Source: an uncultured virus (IMG/VR IMGVR_UViG_3300014205_009245)
Lineage: Duplodnaviria; Heunggongvirae; Uroviricota; Caudoviricetes
Length of the DNA: 46,383 nt
Reading direction: 5' to 3' (one strand)
Virus record (IMG/VR): IMGVR_UViG_3300014205_009245
The position numbers and the translations under genes are program-made. Numbering within the stretch: position 1 is the first letter of the stretch; each line of letters starts with the position of its first letter. Under the pieces are notes generated by a model, which ran no database searches, was not told where the DNA came from, and saw nothing but the letters and a program-made list of their open reading frames with translations. This document shows positions 2,507 to 24,651 of this stretch, one piece after another.

Positions 2507-2529
2507 CCCAACCGCTAAAGACGGTCGGG
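2507..2529 (-). repeat. IS right-end hairpin (likely 3' part of the TnpB omegaRNA scaffold)
   Basis: Minus strand CCCGACCGTCTTTAGCGGTTGGG followed by TAGTTGAT, overlapping the tnpB stop codon. Confidence 0.7.
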
Positions 2530-3732
2530 TTTGCTCCTTAACAGGAACGATTGGCTGGTTGATAGCAGCCTGCCTGTAACGTTTAACCTGCCGCGTAGCG
2601 GCAAATTAAAGGAGACAGGGTGTTTAGCTCCTTTCGCTTCTTGAGTCTGAACATACTTACGAGCTATATTAATAGCTGCATTCCAATCTGCATCAAATAT
2701 AACTCCATCAGAAGATATAAACCCACATCCCTTACGCTCTCCTCCAGCCAAACCTCTATGATCTCTTTGACTGGTATAAGCAGGGTTAACCGTTTTAATC
2801 CTCTTCCCTCGAAGAGGTGCCTTGTAGGTCAGGATGCTCAACAGCATCCCAAAGGGGACCTGACTAAGTCTATTCTTGGACGACTTGCTCTTCTTGTAAT
2901 TATCCTTCTTCAATTTCTTTTTCTTCAAATTGGACAAGTCTTCCAGAACAATTGTATTGGAACTAGTTTCAAGAATTTTGTTAGCTAGATGGTGAGACAA
3001 GTTCTTATTTTTGTTTCTCTCTTGTCTACGAAGCTTGTGCAGTTTTCTCTTTGATGAGTGTGAGTTAGTCTTTTGCTTTTTGGAGTTTAAGACTCGTTTG
3101 AGATAACGGAGAGAACGTTTCTGTCTGAGGAAATCTTTATCAGTGAGAGCCAGACCTTCTGATGTCACGGCGAAACGCCTTTCGCCAAGGTCTACCCCGA
3201 GACAGGTGTTTTCTACAAAAGTTGGTTCTGGAACTTCAAATGACACAGAGAGCCAAAACTCGTTGTCCCTCATAAAGATGAGAGGATCACAAGCAGAATA
3301 CTTTGAGAATAGTTCCTCGAACTTATCATAAGGCTGGTAGGAACAGATGATACGTTTTCCAGTTGTGGTCAGTTTAATTCTGTTACCGTCAAGAAAGGTG
3401 TAGAGCCGCTTGTCTAGCCGAATGCTTAAGTTGGTTTGCTGACACGGTTCTTCTAGTTGGTTGAGCATTTTTGTGGTTTTTAGAGCTTTGTAGGTGGCGT
3501 AGACAGAGTCTTTTGCTCGTATAATAACTTGAGAGGGAGCATCAGGAAAGAGTTTTCTGCACTTATGGTAGTTGCGGTCATACATAATCTTCTTATTAAA
3601 CATCTGGTGTTGAAAGGTATCTTTAGAGATATGGTTCCAGATTTTTTGATGTTCGACAAGAGTTTGCAGAAGGAGAACATGGTCTTCTGCTGATTGAGTG
3701 TGTAACTGAATGTTGTAGGTTAAGTTACTCAT
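2515..3732 (-). CDS. tnpB: TnpB RNA-guided endonuclease
   Basis: RuvC-I GVDLG, RuvC-II VLEDL, VNPAYTSQ, RuvC-III DADWNAAINI; 405 aa. Confidence 0.93.
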   Translation of the reverse strand: MSNLTYNIQLHTQSAEDHVLLLQTLVEHQKIWNHISKDTFQHQMFNKKIMYDRNYHKCRKLFPDAPSQVIIRAKDSVYATYKALKTTKMLNQLEEPCQQTNLSIRLDKRLYTFLDGNRIKLTTTGKRIICSYQPYDKFEELFSKYSACDPLIFMRDNEFWLSVSFEVPEPTFVENTCLGVDLGERRFAVTSEGLALTDKDFLRQKRSLRYLKRVLNSKKQKTNSHSSKRKLHKLRRQERNKNKNLSHHLANKILETSSNTIVLEDLSNLKKKKLKKDNYKKSKSSKNRLSQVPFGMLLSILTYKAPLRGKRIKTVNPAYTSQRDHRGLAGGERKGCGFISSDGVIFDADWNAAINIARKYVQTQEAKGAKHPVSFNLPLRGRLNVTGRLLSTSQSFLLRSKPDRL

Positions 3733-19245: not shown

Positions 19246-19608
19246 CTAGTCTAGTGAATCAAGATCGTCAAGTCTATTCTCTGGATAAGGTTCTGGTCTG
19301 TTGTCTTTGAAGTAGGCTCTCTTGTGTGTCAATTCCAGTTCTTCCAATACCTTATCATGAATCACTTTGAATTCTTTGGCCAAAACTGCCTCCCAATTCA
19401 TTACTTTACTGTATCGTTCTTCTGTCTTATCCCAAGCAATTTCTTCATCAATTTCATAATGGATAACAACGCTTTCAAAACGAGCAGTAGGCAGGGTGCG
19501 CTGAATACCCATCCTGATTCTACCTTGTCGTTTTTTTGTTGTTTCGATTACTTGAGAGGTGTGATCTACGTCAGTATCTTTTTCAGTCTGCAATCCTTCA
19601 TTACCCAC
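19246..19608 (-). CDS. Hypothetical protein
   Basis: GTG start behind AGGAG. Confidence 0.75.
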   Translation of the reverse strand: MGNEGLQTEKDTDVDHTSQVIETTKKRQGRIRMGIQRTLPTARFESVVIHYEIDEEIAWDKTEERYSKVMNWEAVLAKEFKVIHDKVLEELELTHKRAYFKDNRPEPYPENRLDDLDSLD

Positions 19609-19638
19609 GGAATATCTCCTATTTACTTAATACTTTCT

Positions 19639-19668
19639 ATTATACAACAGAATTTTACGATTTGGCGA
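19639..19668 (-). promoter_or_regulatory. Sigma70-like promoter
   Basis: Intergenic TCGCCA (19663-19668), 18-nt spacer, TATAAT (19639-19644), then AGGAG RBS. Confidence 0.6.
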
Positions 19669-19689
19669 AAAATCTGAAAATTTTTGAAA

Positions 19690-22600
19690 TTATTTTTTCC
19701 GGGATACACGGTTAGAGCCAAAAATATCCCCAGTTTGCCTGCCCACTGATTTCTTTCTATCGTTCTTGATATCATCGAAATCTTTCAAAGCTTTAGCTTT
19801 CTTTATGTCACCGAATAATTTGGCATCACATAATGCCTCAATAACTCTGGTGTTAACAGCGGGACCAACCACAGAAGCAAACGAATAAAACAAGTCCTGA
19901 ACATCATAAGGTTGGTGTTTAATTATCTCTTCAGCAGCCTTATCACCAATATCTTTAATAATCAAAGGTCTACGCAACTCTTTGTCCCCTGTTATTGTAT
20001 ATGACATCTTGGACTTATTCAAATCTATAGGGAGTATTTTAATGCCAAAATGACTAGTGGCATCTCTTTCGCACTTCTCTACATAATCAAATTTTCTGCG
20101 TTTAGCTTCAACAGTCATACGGGCCGAAACAAATTCAACAGGAAAGTGGGCCTTTAGATACGCAGTTTTCCAACTTTCATATGCATAAGCGCAGGCATGA
20201 GAATTGCTATTAATAATACCCGATGACAAACAATAAAGATGCTCTGGACTGTCCACTTCCAAATCATAACATTGTTCCATCCCTACGTATTTTATACCTA
20301 TGATTTGTACTTCTTTCCAATTGTTTTGACTATACTTCTTTCTGAGCAATTGCAAATCAGGTTGAAAAGAATTCCTAAAGCTTCGTTTTTGAACTCTTTT
20401 TTGGAATACCTCCATACATCGTAAGACATTCGTATCACTAGATATCCTCTGCTGCAAAGAACCTGATTTACCTCCAAATCCTTTTGTTTCTCTTGGTTGA
20501 ATCTGAGAGCATCTCTGTTCGAGAAATGATACTGTCCATCGTATTCTACTACTATTTTGCGGGATTGATCCATAAAATCTATTTGTCTTCTTTTTGACTT
20601 GGATGTAAACTTTTGACTTTTCACTATTTGAGAATGTTTGAATCCCATTGGCAACAATATAGTTTTGAGCATGCATTCCGGGGCTGATTGCCAACTGCTG
20701 ATTATTTTCATAAACTTCTCGGGATTCTCTTCTCTCCATTTCTTCAATCGCATGGCTCTTTGCTTTTGTATGTCCGGTCTTGCGGATGTTTTTGCTGCTG
20801 TGTCGGATCGATTTTTTTGAAATAGATCGTAATAATTCTGGTTTAATTTGGACATCAATATTGACCTGCGCTGTCTCTCTGTTTGATTTGCAAGAATCGA
20901 CAACGATACCGATATCGACACCTTGTTTTTGTATGCCTCCATTTGTGTAGGATCCTGGTGTATTTGATCCCAAAATTTTCTTGAATTTATTGAGTTTGGT
21001 TGTGAGTAGTGGTCTGATTTGAGAGATTTCCACAGAGCACATTCTCTCTTGTGCTTCCACAGTCCCCTTTTTGTAAACTTCTGATAGCAACCCTGGCATT
21101 CGAAGTGTTTTTTGCTTAGATGGTACTTCTTGCATTCCCGTTTGTGGACATCGAAAAGCCGGCGGTTCGTCAAAAGAGCCTGGCATCCTGAACAAATCCA
21201 ATCTTTCCTTTTGGGCATGTAATATCTCCGCATTCTGTATAACTGATACTTTATGTTTTAAAATATCATGCAGAGGCAGAACGCCGCTAGTGGTTAAAAA
21301 TCTGTGATTCATCGAGCATTTATGAATACTTCCGTCACTAAATATAACCTCCCAAACAGGAATTACACCATGATCGTATACATCTGCAATTCTAATTGAT
21401 TTTCCGTCTGGACTATATACATTCGGCAGTTTTTCTCCTCTGGTCTTTCTATTATACAATTCTTGGATAGAGAGGTCCTTTTCGGAGGTTATGATTTTCT
21501 CGTTGTGGGACAGTGACTTGTTGAAGGCATATCCACCGAATTTTTCCATGTCCCCCCATATTTTTTGAACTGTCTGTTTAGGCACACCACGGGCAACAGC
21601 TCCTTTAATAAATTTATCCTTAGCATCTTGAATTAATTTCTTTTTCTTCTTAGCACAACCTTTCATGAAAGTGTATCCCTCTGATGGTGGTAGATCAGCA
21701 AGTGACATAAAAACTTGCATAACCTCCTCTTGATAAGACATAATACCGTAGGTTTCTTTGGTTATTTTTTCCATAAGAGGATGGGGATAATCAATCTTTT
21801 TCTGCCCCTTTTTACGACTGGCAATCTCTGGTATATAGTCTTTGGGCCCCGGTCTATACATTGCTATTGCTATCATTAAATCGCCGAAAGAGTCTATGTC
21901 AATTTGTTGGATAGTTTGCTTCATGCCAACTTCTTCTAATTGGAAGCATCCATCGGTGTGTCCTGATTTCAGCAAATTGATAGTCAATTTGTCATCCAAT
22001 GGAATATTAGCGACATCTACATCGATGCTGTGGTTTTGTTTGATTAACTCTACAGCTAAATTAATAGCAGTCTTGGTAGATAAACCGAGGATATCCATTT
22101 TAATAAGTCCGACAGATTCCACATCGCTCATTGAGAACTGAGTAGCAACCATTTTTTCTGGCTGGTATTCGGTCTTTTCTGCCGTGTCATCATCTGCCAT
22201 TCCTTTTGTGACATGCAACGGACATATTTCAGACAGGGGTATTGGAGATATTACAATTCCGGCTGCATGTGCGCCCCATGCAGAAATGCCACCTTCTAAA
22301 TTTTTTGCCATTTCGAATACTTGTGGATATTTGTCCATATATCTTCGAAATTCTGAGAACTCATCATATGCTTGCTGTAGATCTTCTATGATTGTTCCAT
22401 CCGCTCTTTTCATGATACTGGATTTGGGAAGAGTATTAAGAATTTCATTTTGAAATTGAAAATTTCTACTCGGATCACCCTGGGCCACAGACCCTTCCGG
22501 ATCTACTGCCCGGATGACACGACGCAAAGCAGATTTAGTTTTTAGAGTTTGCACGGTTCCTATATTTGCAACTTTATCTCGACCATATTTCTCAATTAAA

Positions 22601-22944
22601 TACTCTATAACCTCATGCCTGCGTTCATAACAGAAATCCATATCAATATCTGGCCATCCATCTCTGCCATAAACTCGTCGTTTTTCAAGAGTAAATTCCC
22701 CATCCGGATGTTTTGATGTGATACCCATACAATATACTAGAAGCGAATTAGGGACGTTTGTGTTTCCTTTTAGATTTGGATTCTTTTTAATATCGTCGTA
22801 TATTGATAGCAGATTAGGCAGAACCCCCATATCATCCATTCTGGATAATTCAGAATTTAATCTATCTTTCTGAGATATCAGCTCGGGTGGATTTATTTCT
22901 TTTACTATAGATACTACCCTATCTCGTTCTTTAGACATATTCAC
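19690..22944 (-). CDS. dnaE: DNA polymerase III alpha, catalytic (palm/fingers/HhH) part, intein-containing
   Basis: PDIDMDF, HAAGIVI, KMDILGL, FQLE, YRPGP, YQEE, GYAFNK|intein|SHACAY and YLKAHFP motifs. No PHP domain and no C-terminal OB fold. Confidence 0.95.
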   Translation of the reverse strand: MNMSKERDRVVSIVKEINPPELISQKDRLNSELSRMDDMGVLPNLLSIYDDIKKNPNLKGNTNVPNSLLVYCMGITSKHPDGEFTLEKRRVYGRDGWPDIDMDFCYERRHEVIEYLIEKYGRDKVANIGTVQTLKTKSALRRVIRAVDPEGSVAQGDPSRNFQFQNEILNTLPKSSIMKRADGTIIEDLQQAYDEFSEFRRYMDKYPQVFEMAKNLEGGISAWGAHAAGIVISPIPLSEICPLHVTKGMADDDTAEKTEYQPEKMVATQFSMSDVESVGLIKMDILGLSTKTAINLAVELIKQNHSIDVDVANIPLDDKLTINLLKSGHTDGCFQLEEVGMKQTIQQIDIDSFGDLMIAIAMYRPGPKDYIPEIASRKKGQKKIDYPHPLMEKITKETYGIMSYQEEVMQVFMSLADLPPSEGYTFMKGCAKKKKKLIQDAKDKFIKGAVARGVPKQTVQKIWGDMEKFGGYAFNKSLSHNEKIITSEKDLSIQELYNRKTRGEKLPNVYSPDGKSIRIADVYDHGVIPVWEVIFSDGSIHKCSMNHRFLTTSGVLPLHDILKHKVSVIQNAEILHAQKERLDLFRMPGSFDEPPAFRCPQTGMQEVPSKQKTLRMPGLLSEVYKKGTVEAQERMCSVEISQIRPLLTTKLNKFKKILGSNTPGSYTNGGIQKQGVDIGIVVDSCKSNRETAQVNIDVQIKPELLRSISKKSIRHSSKNIRKTGHTKAKSHAIEEMERRESREVYENNQQLAISPGMHAQNYIVANGIQTFSNSEKSKVYIQVKKKTNRFYGSIPQNSSRIRWTVSFLEQRCSQIQPRETKGFGGKSGSLQQRISSDTNVLRCMEVFQKRVQKRSFRNSFQPDLQLLRKKYSQNNWKEVQIIGIKYVGMEQCYDLEVDSPEHLYCLSSGIINSNSHACAYAYESWKTAYLKAHFPVEFVSARMTVEAKRRKFDYVEKCERDATSHFGIKILPIDLNKSKMSYTITGDKELRRPLIIKDIGDKAAEEIIKHQPYDVQDLFYSFASVVGPAVNTRVIEALCDAKLFGDIKKAKALKDFDDIKNDRKKSVGRQTGDIFGSNRVSRKK
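20298..21218 (-). CDS. Nested +1-frame putative homing endonuclease (2x C2HC zinc finger + DUF559/Vsr-like nuclease)
   Basis: GGAG-7nt-ATG(21218) MPKRKDWICSGC..HKREC, CQGC..HKREC; C-terminal IDF...IVVEYDGQYH...KD...GYLVIR; TAG at 20298-20300. Confidence 0.85.
   Translation of the reverse strand: MPKRKDWICSGCQALLTNRRLFDVHKRECKKYHLSKKHFECQGCYQKFTKRGLWKHKRECALWKSLKSDHYSQPNSINSRKFWDQIHQDPTQMEAYKNKVSISVSLSILANQTERQRRSILMSKLNQNYYDLFQKNRSDTAAKTSARPDIQKQRAMRLKKWREENPEKFMKIISSWQSAPECMLKTILLPMGFKHSQIVKSQKFTSKSKRRQIDFMDQSRKIVVEYDGQYHFSNRDALRFNQEKQKDLEVNQVLCSRGYLVIRMSYDVWRYSKKEFKNEALGILFNLICNCSERSIVKTIGKKYKS
21445..21459 (-). promoter_or_regulatory. Candidate internal promoter for the nested endonuclease
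   Basis: TTGTATAATAGAAAG is identical to 19633-19647 and lies about 230 nt upstream of the nested ATG. No clear -35. Confidence 0.4.
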
Positions 22945-23333
22945 TCCGGTTTAGGATCTTTCCATCCCCCAACAATCTCAACTTCTACATTATTTAAATA
23001 TCTCCAGCCCTGAAACCCCTTCATTGGAATCGGTTTAATCCATTTCCACGAATCAGCCGGGATGGTAACATATGTGCCGGGACGCCACTTAGTCCCCGTT
23101 GTAGAACATTCCATACCGTCTGATTTGTCTTCAATATCACTTATGACACCAAACCCGCGAATATACCCATCCTCCACATAGAATATTTTGCTCCCAACAT
23201 CTATATTTTTGGGACGCGTTGGTAATCTGCGAAAATAGTATCCACCCCCATTATTGAGACATCGAGTAGCTTCTTGTTTGGAATTTTCTAATTCAGATTT
23301 TGGTGTTGTCACGACTATATTAAGCATGTTCAC
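22941..23333 (-). CDS. ASCH/PUA-like domain protein
   Basis: VGSKIFYVEDGYIRGFGVI...PIPMKGFQGWRY pattern. Confidence 0.55.
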   Translation of the reverse strand: MNMLNIVVTTPKSELENSKQEATRCLNNGGGYYFRRLPTRPKNIDVGSKIFYVEDGYIRGFGVISDIEDKSDGMECSTTGTKWRPGTYVTIPADSWKWIKPIPMKGFQGWRYLNNVEVEIVGGWKDPKPE

Positions 23334-23358
23334 TTTCTAAAAATTTTCTACATTCGTA

Positions 23359-24651
23359 TCAATCTTTTATGCCAAAATCAGATCGAAATAGTTTATAAGC
23401 CCATTCAAATCCCAAAAACCGTTCCCAAAGGAGATTGTATCGCACTGGGTCTACGCCTTCTGATATACCGAGACAGTACAAAAGTAAAGATCCGTATCCC
23501 GAACCTCTAATACCGCCGGGTATTTTCTTTCTGCGAGTAAATTCAATTATATCACGCACTATTAGAAAATATGTATCAAATCCAAATTTTTGTGTATCCC
23601 AAATCAACTTGACATCATCAAGTTCTCTCTGAAGTCTCTCTCGGTGAGGAACTGAATCATTTAATCCTTTCGATTGTAGTCCTTTCCACGCCATGTCTTT
23701 TAGATAATCAAATGAAAGCGCATATCCTTCTGGTAGATCAAATTTAGGCAATAACATTCTCTGCCCGAGATTCATATCAGAGTAATCACATTTTTCAGCA
23801 ATTTCTAATGTATTAGCCATTGACCTTGGCAGATGGCCGAACACCTCAGCCATTTCGTCGCCAGATTTGAAATAAAATTCATCGTATGGAAACTTAATAT
23901 GTTTAGGGTCTTTAATGGATCGTCCCGAACTCATACACATAAGCGTTTCATGATACTTAGCATGCGATTTTTCAACATAATGACAGTCATTTGTCACAAT
24001 AGATTTGACATTGAGTTCTTTGGAAATTTTTTGTATACCTGGCAATACTTTTGCTTCCAAATCTAGTCCATGATACATCATTTCAAGATAAAAATCATCT
24101 CCAAAAATATCCTTGTAGATTGCTGCTGCTGCTTTTGCTTTTTCGTATCTGTCTATGGATAGATTCCAGTTAACAACATTTGATAAACATGCGGTCGAAA
24201 CAATCAGCCCCTCTTTATATTTATCGAGCAGATCGATATCAATACGAGGATCATAATGGTATCCTTCGAGGGATGCTATCTGAGATAATGTGCACAGATT
24301 GGCATATCCCTGAGAGTTCTTCGCCAAGATAATTACATGCCTGTTGCCTCGCCGTTTATCTGGTTGCCCTTCCGTAGAATGGCACGCGTGATCTCTGGAT
24401 TGGTATGCTTCCATTCCCAGAATGGGTTTGATACCTACATCACCCTTACGACAAGCTTTTAAGAATGTAATTGCTCCGGCAACGGTGCCGTGGTCTGTTA
24501 GCGCGACTGCTGGCATGCCCATTCGCTTGGCTGTGCCAACTATGCCAGGCATGACGATGTTATCATCTTTGTCTAGGGTATCATCTATCTTAGAAAAGCC
24601 ATCGAATTTTGAAAATGACGAATGCGAATGTATATGTACAAAATCTACCAT
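23359..24651 (-). CDS. dnaE: DNA polymerase III alpha, N-terminal part (PHP domain + start of palm)
   Basis: HIHSHS, ALTDHG, GMEAY, PRID, TACL, TNDCHY, RGSGYGSLLLYCLGI and WERFL motifs. Stops before PDIDxDF. Confidence 0.93.
   Translation of the reverse strand: MVDFVHIHSHSSFSKFDGFSKIDDTLDKDDNIVMPGIVGTAKRMGMPAVALTDHGTVAGAITFLKACRKGDVGIKPILGMEAYQSRDHACHSTEGQPDKRRGNRHVIILAKNSQGYANLCTLSQIASLEGYHYDPRIDIDLLDKYKEGLIVSTACLSNVVNWNLSIDRYEKAKAAAAIYKDIFGDDFYLEMMYHGLDLEAKVLPGIQKISKELNVKSIVTNDCHYVEKSHAKYHETLMCMSSGRSIKDPKHIKFPYDEFYFKSGDEMAEVFGHLPRSMANTLEIAEKCDYSDMNLGQRMLLPKFDLPEGYALSFDYLKDMAWKGLQSKGLNDSVPHRERLQRELDDVKLIWDTQKFGFDTYFLIVRDIIEFTRRKKIPGGIRGSGYGSLLLYCLGISEGVDPVRYNLLWERFLGFEWAYKLFRSDFGIKD

Follow-up and report, generated by a model that had tools for sequence, protein, structure and literature searches.

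A putative Vsr-like homing-endonuclease gene overprinted in the +1 frame of a contiguous DnaE intein from an uncultured phage

Fractured genes, as described by Dassa et al. (2009, PMC2677866), combine a split intein with a free-standing Vsr-like endonuclease. More recently, actinobacteriophage inteins were reported in which the endonuclease is encoded in another frame or on the other strand (Gosselin, Arsenault & Gogarten, bioRxiv 10.1101/2025.01.02.630785); that preprint proposes an origin by invasion of a free-standing nuclease gene, points out that annotation pipelines miss such cases, and states that VSR-like nucleases were otherwise known only from split inteins. A LAGLIDADG endonuclease that lies out of frame in a cyanobacterial dnaX intein has been described as well (Phillips, DeSimone & Gogarten, bioRxiv 10.64898/2026.09.14.751524). 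Here we analyse the gene for DnaE, the alpha subunit of DNA polymerase III, in a 46,383-nucleotide (nt) stretch from an uncultured virus of the class Caudoviricetes (IMG/VR record IMGVR_UViG_3300014205_009245), the whole of which is called the window below. The best explanation, which we hold with considerable confidence, is that this gene carries an intein that would splice in cis and whose linker is overprinted by a homing-endonuclease gene, probably translated independently and presumably active in cleavage and homing. An initial annotation, made from the letters of the window alone, had proposed such an arrangement and rated its novelty highly while allowing for precedents. As far as the reports of 2025-2026 on out-of-frame and antisense intein endonucleases and that of 2009 on the split form describe them, such precedents exist, and the rating was too high. 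The overprinting principle is already known (2025-2026), and the arrangement is more widespread and mobile than a single locus suggested.

The +1 frame of DnaE is open for 319 codons (21257 to 20301, minus strand), and the nested gene within it starts with an ATG at 21218-21216 and stops with a TAG at 20300-20298. Its product matched Pfam DUF559 with 24.3-24.5 bits against a cutoff of 20.6, and an exhaustive protein search returned 188 homologs at E<=1e-3, of which 153 reached E<=1e-10; free-standing proteins of ~300 amino acids (aa) predominate. All 13 residues that are invariant in a 40-member family alignment are kept by the window nuclease, an E..D..H...D motif among them: D219, E230, D232, G233 and D252 never vary, H236 is shared by at least 90% of the 40 sequences, and each of these is present in the window. 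We take these six to be the catalytic residues of the family. Residues C9, C12, H25, C29, C41, C44, H56 and C60, invariant in a second alignment (A2), would form two zinc fingers, for which Foldseek gave weak matches to C2H2 fingers. AlphaFold2, supplied with the family alignment, modelled the nuclease at a predicted local distance difference test score (pLDDT) of 88.4. Residues 181-308, numbered from an upstream ATG at 21233, superposed on Escherichia coli Vsr (1cw0_A; Z 12.2, root-mean-square deviation (rmsd) 2.6, 115 residues aligned), on 1vsr (Z 11.5), on the DUF559-type structure 3hrl (Z 10.7), and on the catalytic domain of I-Bth0305I (3r3p_B; Z 10.0, 96 of 98 residues aligned). The best Foldseek match was Vsr as well, at E 4.8e-4. 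Judged from sequence and model, the +1 protein is a Vsr-like (DUF559/I-Bth0305I 'EDxHD') nuclease, probably expressed and presumably able to cleave DNA.

Recovery of the family depended heavily on the kind of search. A word-indexed protein search found no homolog of the nuclease, which we ascribe to limited sensitivity because the exhaustive search found 188. A tblastn search of 50,697 cultured-phage records gave no match, a scan of genome contigs gave just two, both partial and distant, and single-sequence scans of IMG/VR gave almost none, so that alignments were needed. Compared with PDB sequences, the family profile matched nothing but the Ros/MucR zinc finger 2jsp_A, and I-Bth0305I was recovered by fold only. 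This Ros/MucR likeness (2jsp_A, E 3e-4) lies in the zinc-finger region of many members of the fractured type (alignment A1), instead of which the window nuclease carries its two CxxC...HxxxC fingers.

The insert in the host frame has the marks of an intein. The DnaE open reading frame (ORF) comprises 1084 open codons, in which the insert begins with a Ser after GGYAFNK and ends in GIINSN, followed by SHACAY; an intein-less DnaE (L003; numbers with the prefix L are our locus numbers) reads YGFNKSHA without interruption across the same site. The residues of a class 1 intein are in place (S1, H71, N438 and S+1). When the window and nine relatives were aligned, position 1 was Ser in nine loci and Thr in one, and the invariant columns were confined to residues 49-85 and 412-438, including H49, G50, H71, F73 and T75 in the N-terminal splicing domain and G412, D418-V421, H426 and N438 in the C-terminal one, H71 and N438 being identical in 10/10. 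AlphaFold2 modelled residues 1-100 and 400-438 with confidence (pLDDT 83-94), and the modelled ends adopt the HINT fold, the best match being a NrdJ-1 split-intein fusion (8ubs_A; Z 17.9, rmsd 2.0, 134 residues aligned), besides NpuDnaB (4o1r_A; Z 17.6) and gp41-1 (Z 16.6). Altogether 31 chains reached Z>=8, and all those shown are inteins, bacterial intein-like (BIL), Hedgehog or Vint domains. The host ORF runs on across the nuclease gene with 0 stops, instead of being divided into two ORFs with split-intein halves as in a fractured gene, and since the host frame is uninterrupted over the whole nuclease gene, splicing in the window would have to occur in cis. The insert is thus best read as a contiguous, presumably cis-splicing class 1 intein at the conserved GYAFNK|SHA site; that it splices is likely because the host frame has been selected to stay open and the host gene is essential.

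Relatives of the locus were recovered by scanning IMG/VR with the family alignment and, in a further scan, with an alignment of a distant clade (clade B). In eight of eight loci (L005-L012), DnaE is fractured at the same site, GYGFN(R/K/H/A)|(S/C), with homologous intein and nuclease families; an N-terminal ORF ending in the intein N-half is followed by a free-standing nuclease ORF and by a C-terminal ORF starting with the intein C-half. In the other type, called dual-frame here, the DnaE frame stays open through a +1-frame nuclease, as it does in the three closest relatives of the window nuclease (L004, L026 and L027; 55-58% identical) and in clade B (L037 and L039-L043), which belongs to another, full-length DnaE lineage and whose nucleases are 29-45% identical over the best-matching segment. 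Host-frame stops number 0 in 10/10 dual-frame loci versus 22-59 in the equivalent frame of 13/13 fractured relatives, and 15 of the 20 loci from the scan with the clade B alignment had 0 such stops while the remaining five had 19-30. Near-identical loci were merged (L025 holds the nuclease of L004, L038 equals L037 over the shared middle, L049 equals L040, L057 equals L056, L064 equals L035, L065 equals L011, and L055 and L062 closely match L054 and L060, respectively), and the counts exclude short or truncated contigs (L032-L034 and L036) as well as weak or partial matches (L001, L013-L024 and L044-L047). This left 21 distinct dual-frame loci, the window included, and 16 distinct fractured ones, with a bimodal distribution of host-frame stops: either 0 or at least 19 (19-59 in fractured loci), with no intermediates. 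The nuclease lies in frame +1 relative to the host in 18/18 dual-frame loci for which the offset was computed.

This recurrence bears on whether the window could be an assembly or sequencing artefact, in which two compensating indels mask an ordinary in-frame intein nuclease. The sequence is derived from a metagenome, yet 20 further distinct loci from independent assemblies have the same +1 relation with both frames open. The nuclease also has its own Shine-Dalgarno (SD) motif, ATG and stop, and indels cannot erase the 15-28 host-frame stops that would be expected (below). Besides, all sampled words of the sequence were present in two DNA sequencing runs from two studies, which may be its source, no RNA run being among the matches listed, and one 245-nt contig covers 20878-21122 with 2 substitutions and no gaps, although so short an overlap makes a weak indel test. 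We consider the probability of an artefact to be practically negligible.

Several relatives show peculiarities of their own. An additional, ordinary mini-intein lies upstream in the DnaE of L004 (861-4532), L026 and L027 (in L004, ...YG|CLAKDT...VHN|CHAAG), while the window is without it and reads GISAWGAHAAG at that place. In L037 and L039-L043, the nuclease ORF extends over intein blocks F and G and ends 4-8 codons before the splice junction, so that ~35 codons at its 3' end are constrained in both frames. In L061 (722-5755), DnaE is host to a canonical LAGLIDADG intein as well (Pfam Intein_splicing and LAGLIDADG_3); in L063 (836-5260), it forms a fusion with a uracil-DNA glycosylase domain and has a same-site intein of a different type (Cys1, HN end). 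A third arrangement, beside the fractured and the dual-frame one, is seen in the 779-aa protein P0010, in which the reading frame of a DnaE fragment with the intein N-half at GYGFNR|T continues into a nuclease of the family and then stops.

That two frames stay open over some 300 codons calls for an explanation. Elsewhere in the DnaE gene no off-frame open stretch reaches 60 codons, and the longest off-frame open stretch on the sense strand of 39 other presumptive genes of the window has 79. When the nuclease protein was kept fixed and its codons were redrawn from the usage of the window, the host frame acquired 28.2 stops on average and 14 at the least, and none of 20,000 draws was stop-free; a stricter control, permuting synonymous codons within the gene, left 15.6 on average and never fewer than 8, within-gene permutation as a whole predicting 15-20 stops with a minimum of 7. 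The openness can be traced to a single dicodon rule. Among the pyrimidine-ending codons of the window nuclease, those standing before codons that begin with AA, AG or GA end in T in 0/35 cases, as compared with 58/83 elsewhere; it is only in this context that a T-ending codon can create a host-frame stop. Over the dual-frame loci, T made up 0/278 of the pyrimidine endings in such contexts versus 599/824 in the fractured loci, where the two contexts are alike (961/1293 elsewhere). Chance or compositional openness of the host frame is rejected by the resampling, the permutation and the T-avoidance counts.

The same counts weigh on a further alternative, namely that the open host frame does not serve cis-splicing and two separate pieces of DnaE are produced, in the manner of fractured genes, the openness being a compositional side effect. 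Close homology to the split-intein loci speaks for it. However, synonymous permutation that keeps the composition still predicts the 15-20 stops just given, T-ending codons are avoided in the stop-creating context only, and a host-frame Met just before block F is lacking in 10/10 dual-frame loci, whereas the intein C-half (IntC) of fractured loci starts with M(T/S)NIK. We judge a two-piece DnaE to be very improbable.

What selection maintains in each frame was examined through the ratio of nonsynonymous to synonymous differences per site (pN/pS) in the same alignment columns. In the nuclease frame it was 0.23-0.47 in clade B (15 pairs) and 0.20-0.33 in the other dual-frame clade, clade A (six pairs), against 0.92-1.29 and 1.38-1.82, respectively, in the host frame; nine pairs of fractured controls gave 0.16-0.38 in the nuclease frame and 1.37-2.22 in the equivalent host frame, which is untranslated there. 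Identity to three close relatives of the window is 55-59% for the nuclease, 23-27% for the host-frame peptide and 25-33% for the unused third frame. Since the host-frame identity is no better than that of the unused frame, the linker is constrained only to stay open. Neither an invariant column was found in it when the window was aligned with nine relatives nor a confident model, AlphaFold2 giving residues 106-396 a pLDDT below 50. Both frames are held open by selection, the nuclease frame being selected as a protein and the linker being without protein-level constraint. A functional domain in the host-frame linker was considered and is rejected by the pN/pS values, the lack of invariant columns and of any Pfam family, and the pLDDT below 50.

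These analyses bear out, point by point, what the initial annotation had read from the sequence: the coordinates of the 438-aa intein and of the +1 gene at 20298-21218 with its GGAG, ATG and TAG agree with our ORF and boundary analysis; normal splicing blocks at the ends of a domainless middle are matched by the HINT-fold ends and the unfolded linker without Pfam family; and the two fingers and DUF559/Vsr nuclease are supported by Pfam, the invariant residues and the Vsr fold (Z 12.2). Its estimate that both frames are open beyond chance and its remark on C-ending codons hold in the resamplings (0/20,000) and the context counts (0/35 versus 58/83). Checks it had proposed by structure prediction and by comparison of homologs turned out in its favour as well. 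Structure prediction yielded a nuclease fold in the +1 frame and a disordered middle in the host frame, purifying selection is seen in the nuclease frame (pN/pS 0.20-0.47 over 21 pairs, the host frame having 0.92-1.82), and homologs conserve the +1 protein rather than the intein-frame linker.

Signals for independent translation of the nuclease are found at its start. An SD-like motif precedes the nuclease ATG by 6-9 nt in 10/10 dual-frame loci examined, and this ATG follows the first ~100 host codons of the intein, where endonucleases are canonically inserted. We therefore weighed a programmed frameshift, +1 into the nuclease frame and possibly -1 back, which would produce an intein-nuclease fusion. 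The in-frame fusion P0010, which joins the N-part of DnaE, the intein N-half (IntN) and the nuclease in one frame, shows that fusion occurs in the family. Frameshifting, in contrast, would not require the ~300-codon open host frame that has clearly been selected, and a conserved SD motif and start codon precede the nuclease in 10/10 loci; nor was a conserved slippery site seen, though no search was aimed at one. We deem frameshifting highly unlikely.

In the window, the outer stem of a predicted RNA hairpin pairs with the SD motif (Table 1). Hairpins of this kind were predicted in 7/10 loci, i.e., the window and 6/6 of clade B, with z of -2.7 to -4.2 and at most 2/200 shuffled sequences as stable. 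Instead of uncoupling the nuclease from DnaE, as the initial annotation had supposed, such an SD-sequestering hairpin may couple its initiation to DnaE translation, because DnaE-frame ribosomes must melt the hairpin that pairs with the SD motif.

Taken together, we propose the following mechanism. Translation of the nuclease would start at its own SD motif and ATG and proceed in the +1 frame, inside the endonuclease-insertion loop of the intein, and the hairpin on the ribosome-binding site probably keeps this translation low or dependent on DnaE-frame ribosomes. Ribosomes in the DnaE frame would pass through the nuclease gene and thereby produce a ~300-residue unstructured linker between the splicing-domain halves; these would still dock, and the whole insert would be spliced out to leave an active polymerase. 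Selection on the host frame would concern nothing but the absence of stops, a demand that could be satisfied almost free of cost by avoiding T-ending codons wherever the next codon begins with AA, AG or GA. When other phages infect the same cell, their intein-less DnaE alleles are presumably cut by the nuclease, whereupon repair of the cut empty allele would copy in the intein together with its passenger, i.e., homing.

Several observations weigh against this proposal. The 438-aa window intein matches no Pfam family, not even an intein one, and scores 12.9 bits with TIGR01443 (intein_Cterm), under the cutoff of 15.6; the Pfam Intein_splicing cutoff of 35.8 is passed by the relatives L054 (40.4) and L058 (36.9). 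The penultimate residue of block G is Ser437 in place of His, and S, R or A in relatives; a penultimate His is not universal among inteins. Besides, an unstructured linker of 300 residues could slow or impair splicing, and in the distant dual-frame loci L054, L058 and L060 no ATG is found near the conserved N-terminus of the nuclease, so that GTG or TTG starts would be needed. As for the hairpin, none was significant in the three closest relatives of the window (L004, z -0.16; L026, +0.18; L027, -0.33), and RNAalifold returned neither a consensus structure nor covariation for the six clade B upstream regions; the lack of a consensus is attributed to the clade B hairpins being out of register. 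The proposed role of the hairpin is accordingly weakly supported.

Although DnaE is the host of most dual-frame loci, other hosts were recovered: a protein of ~760 aa in L054-L057, and one of 1450-1680 aa in L058 and L060/L062. Pfam and PHROGs gave no identity for the host proteins of L054/L056 and L058/L060, and in L054-L058 and L060/L062 Pfam found Intein_splicing only, stretched over ~400 residues. The intein N-domains of these hosts share 40-57% identity with their counterparts in DnaE clade B, and the accompanying nucleases nest among the DnaE-hosted ones in the tree; intein and nuclease hence appear to have moved together. One phage seems to carry two dual-frame inteins, since L053 (in DnaE) and L060 (in the ~1680-aa protein) share one viral IMG/VR contig. 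Joint movement into at least two non-DnaE hosts is what an active homing unit would be expected to show, and the nuclease is most closely related to I-Bth0305I and to the nucleases of fractured genes, which are putative homing enzymes. Both points count against the possibility that the nested nuclease no longer homes and is kept for phage exclusion, regulation or a benefit to the host gene. In favour of the latter are the strong purifying selection over deep divergence and the persistence of the arrangement in many lineages, and marker exclusion by free-standing phage nucleases is known. We regard a non-homing role as unlikely on balance and prefer homing.

In both trees, the smaller and the larger, at least two changes of state between dual-frame and fractured are needed. 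In the larger tree, clades A and B are adjacent and 17 fractured rows form one group, with the fractured locus L051 placed inside clade B at weak support (81); in the smaller, more careful one, the fractured locus L008 branches as the sister group of clade A and P0001 (96/95). Loss of the open frame takes one mutation, and regaining it requires the purging of 20-50 stops. A stepwise route to an open frame can be conceived in which stops were removed from 5' to 3', bringing termination ever nearer to the start of the C-terminal ORF; each removal would shift termination because only the first host-frame stop matters in a fractured locus. As regards the initial annotation, the out-of-frame nesting of a free-standing nuclease and the synonymous recoding are supported by family, fold, per-frame selection, stop statistics and 20 further loci, while the direction it assumed, invasion of a mini-intein followed by recoding, is not settled by the trees. 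A broader interpretation would have the pair, rather than a passing accident, as an old, self-contained mobile module that stays stop-free down to ~30% nuclease identity, has hopped from one lineage of DnaE to another and entered two or more further phage genes, is the direct evolutionary partner of fractured genes with switches between the two forms, and whose nuclease translation is possibly gated by hairpin melting. We put this forward tentatively and with some doubt; if true, the dose of a selfish nuclease would be tied to the expression of the gene it parasitises.

Table 1. Coordinates of the DnaE gene, its intein and the nested gene in the window.
Feature	Coordinates	Strand	Basis
DnaE (Pol III alpha) gene, intein included	19690..22944	-	C-terminal 1084-aa part (palm, fingers, helix-hairpin-helix (HhH)); Pfam DNA_pol3_alpha, DNA_pol3_finger, HHH_6; NCBIfam Pol III alpha models
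N-extein, 476 aa, end ...GGYAFNK	21517..22944	-	Adjoins C-extein in intein-less homolog L003
Intein (predicted), 438 aa, host frame, Ser1...Asn438	20203..21516	-	DnaE ORF residues 477-914
N-terminal splicing domain, intein residues 1-100, block B His71	21217..21516	-	pLDDT 83-94; conserved columns
Host-frame linker, intein residues 101-399	20320..21216	-	Stop-free; unconserved; no predicted fold
C-terminal splicing domain, intein residues 400-438, blocks F/G, ...YDLEV...GIINSN	20203..20319	-	pLDDT 86-91; conserved columns
C-extein, 170 aa, start SHACAYAY, plus stop	19690..20202	-	ORF and splice boundary
Putative homing-endonuclease gene, +1 frame, 306 aa + TAG	20298..21218	-	Pfam DUF559; homologs; pN/pS; AlphaFold2 model
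Shine-Dalgarno GGAG, 7 nt before nuclease ATG	21226..21229	-	Sequence
Two CxxC...HxxxC zinc fingers, nuclease residues 9-29 and 41-60	21039..21194	-	Invariant Cys/His
Vsr-like catalytic domain of nuclease (predicted)	20310..20693	-	Fold comparison of predicted model
Predicted RNA hairpin, outer stem pairing SD, within intein coding sequence	21226..21275	-	Minimum free energy -16.3 kcal/mol, z -2.68, 1/200 shuffles as stable

The locus lies in a phage replication module with genes for a DnaB-like helicase, a primase, a UvsX-like recombinase, a Cas4-like exonuclease and methyltransferases; a transposase-like gene of 405 aa (2515-3732, minus strand; phrog_506, E 2e-35) is situated within the module as well. 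The insert is absent from all 1346 cultured-phage records with DnaE matches, none of which reached 80% query coverage. A scan of 19600-23400 for sigma-70-type promoters and terminators found no more of them than in shuffled sequence. DnaE is broken a second time upstream, without an intein (22941-24651, minus strand), where a 430-aa PHP-domain gene (23359-24651) precedes the 1084-aa gene and a 130-aa ORF (22941-23333) with a DUF1489 match (28.4 bits versus a cutoff of 25) lies between the two. The two DnaE parts overlap in their positions on the DNA_pol3_alpha profile (2-97 and 24-260) and have an SLL(L/V)YC(L/M)GI(S/T) motif in common, which suggests a partial duplication at this break.

The locus is a clean natural case in which one frame is selected only against stops while the overlapping frame encodes what is by all predictions a real enzyme, and this selection shows itself in a single dicodon rule. 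Where one frame per stretch is admitted, as in intein surveys and by gene callers, such inteins would be scored as decaying or 'mini' and the nuclease would be missed. Inteins that tolerate a 300-residue unstructured linker may be of interest to protein engineers. The contiguous, presumably cis-splicing form occupies the same site as fractured split-intein loci whose intein and nuclease belong to the same families, so that the entry of endonucleases into inteins and the origin of split inteins can be tested by comparison.

Compared with the fractured genes of PMC2677866, as that report presents them, the window agrees in the nuclease family, in the kind of host, phage DnaE being among those described, in the position of the nuclease at the endonuclease-insertion point of the intein, and in a hairpin before the nuclease. 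The fractured loci L005-L012 show that arrangement at the same DnaE site and with homologous intein halves. Unlike the window, the hosts in PMC2677866 are divided into two ORFs, and the overlaps reported there are just 6-69 bp. I-Bth0305I (Taylor et al., 2011, PMC3239194), a characterised Vsr-like homing endonuclease, has the catalytic-domain fold in common with the window nuclease but is described there as encoded in a group I intron of phage recA. A methylase insert with an out-of-frame HNH nuclease (2025, PMC11855218) likewise has a host frame without stop codons; it differs in its nuclease family and, according to that report, in having no detectable splicing domain and in being thought to be retained in the protein. 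In the passages retrieved by a full-text literature search, no Vsr-like nuclease on the sense strand was described as overprinting a contiguous intein, nor any homology of such a nuclease to fractured loci. The window does show the features by which the Gogarten-lab reports of 2025-2026, as far as they set them out, recognise inteins with out-of-frame endonucleases: an ORF in another frame, an unfolded linker, and purifying selection in the nuclease frame only. The dnaX intein (10.64898/2026.09.14.751524) is described as resembling it in an ORF that overlaps between the splicing domains, in SD motifs, in a low-confidence linker model, and in a low omega (the nonsynonymous-to-synonymous rate ratio) in the nuclease frame with a raised one in the extein frame, whereas its LAGLIDADG family, its cellular dnaX host and its frame, +2, are different. 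The actinophage inteins of 10.1101/2025.01.02.630785, too, have a linker that reads as a disordered peptide and an endonuclease in another frame. The cases presented in that preprint are antisense LAGLIDADG, antisense VSR-like and frame-3 endonuclease VII-like, in actinophage terminase, capsid, polymerase and ThyX; the window differs from them in a sense-strand, +1 Vsr-like nuclease, in its occurrence in environmental phages, and in having direct fractured homologs.

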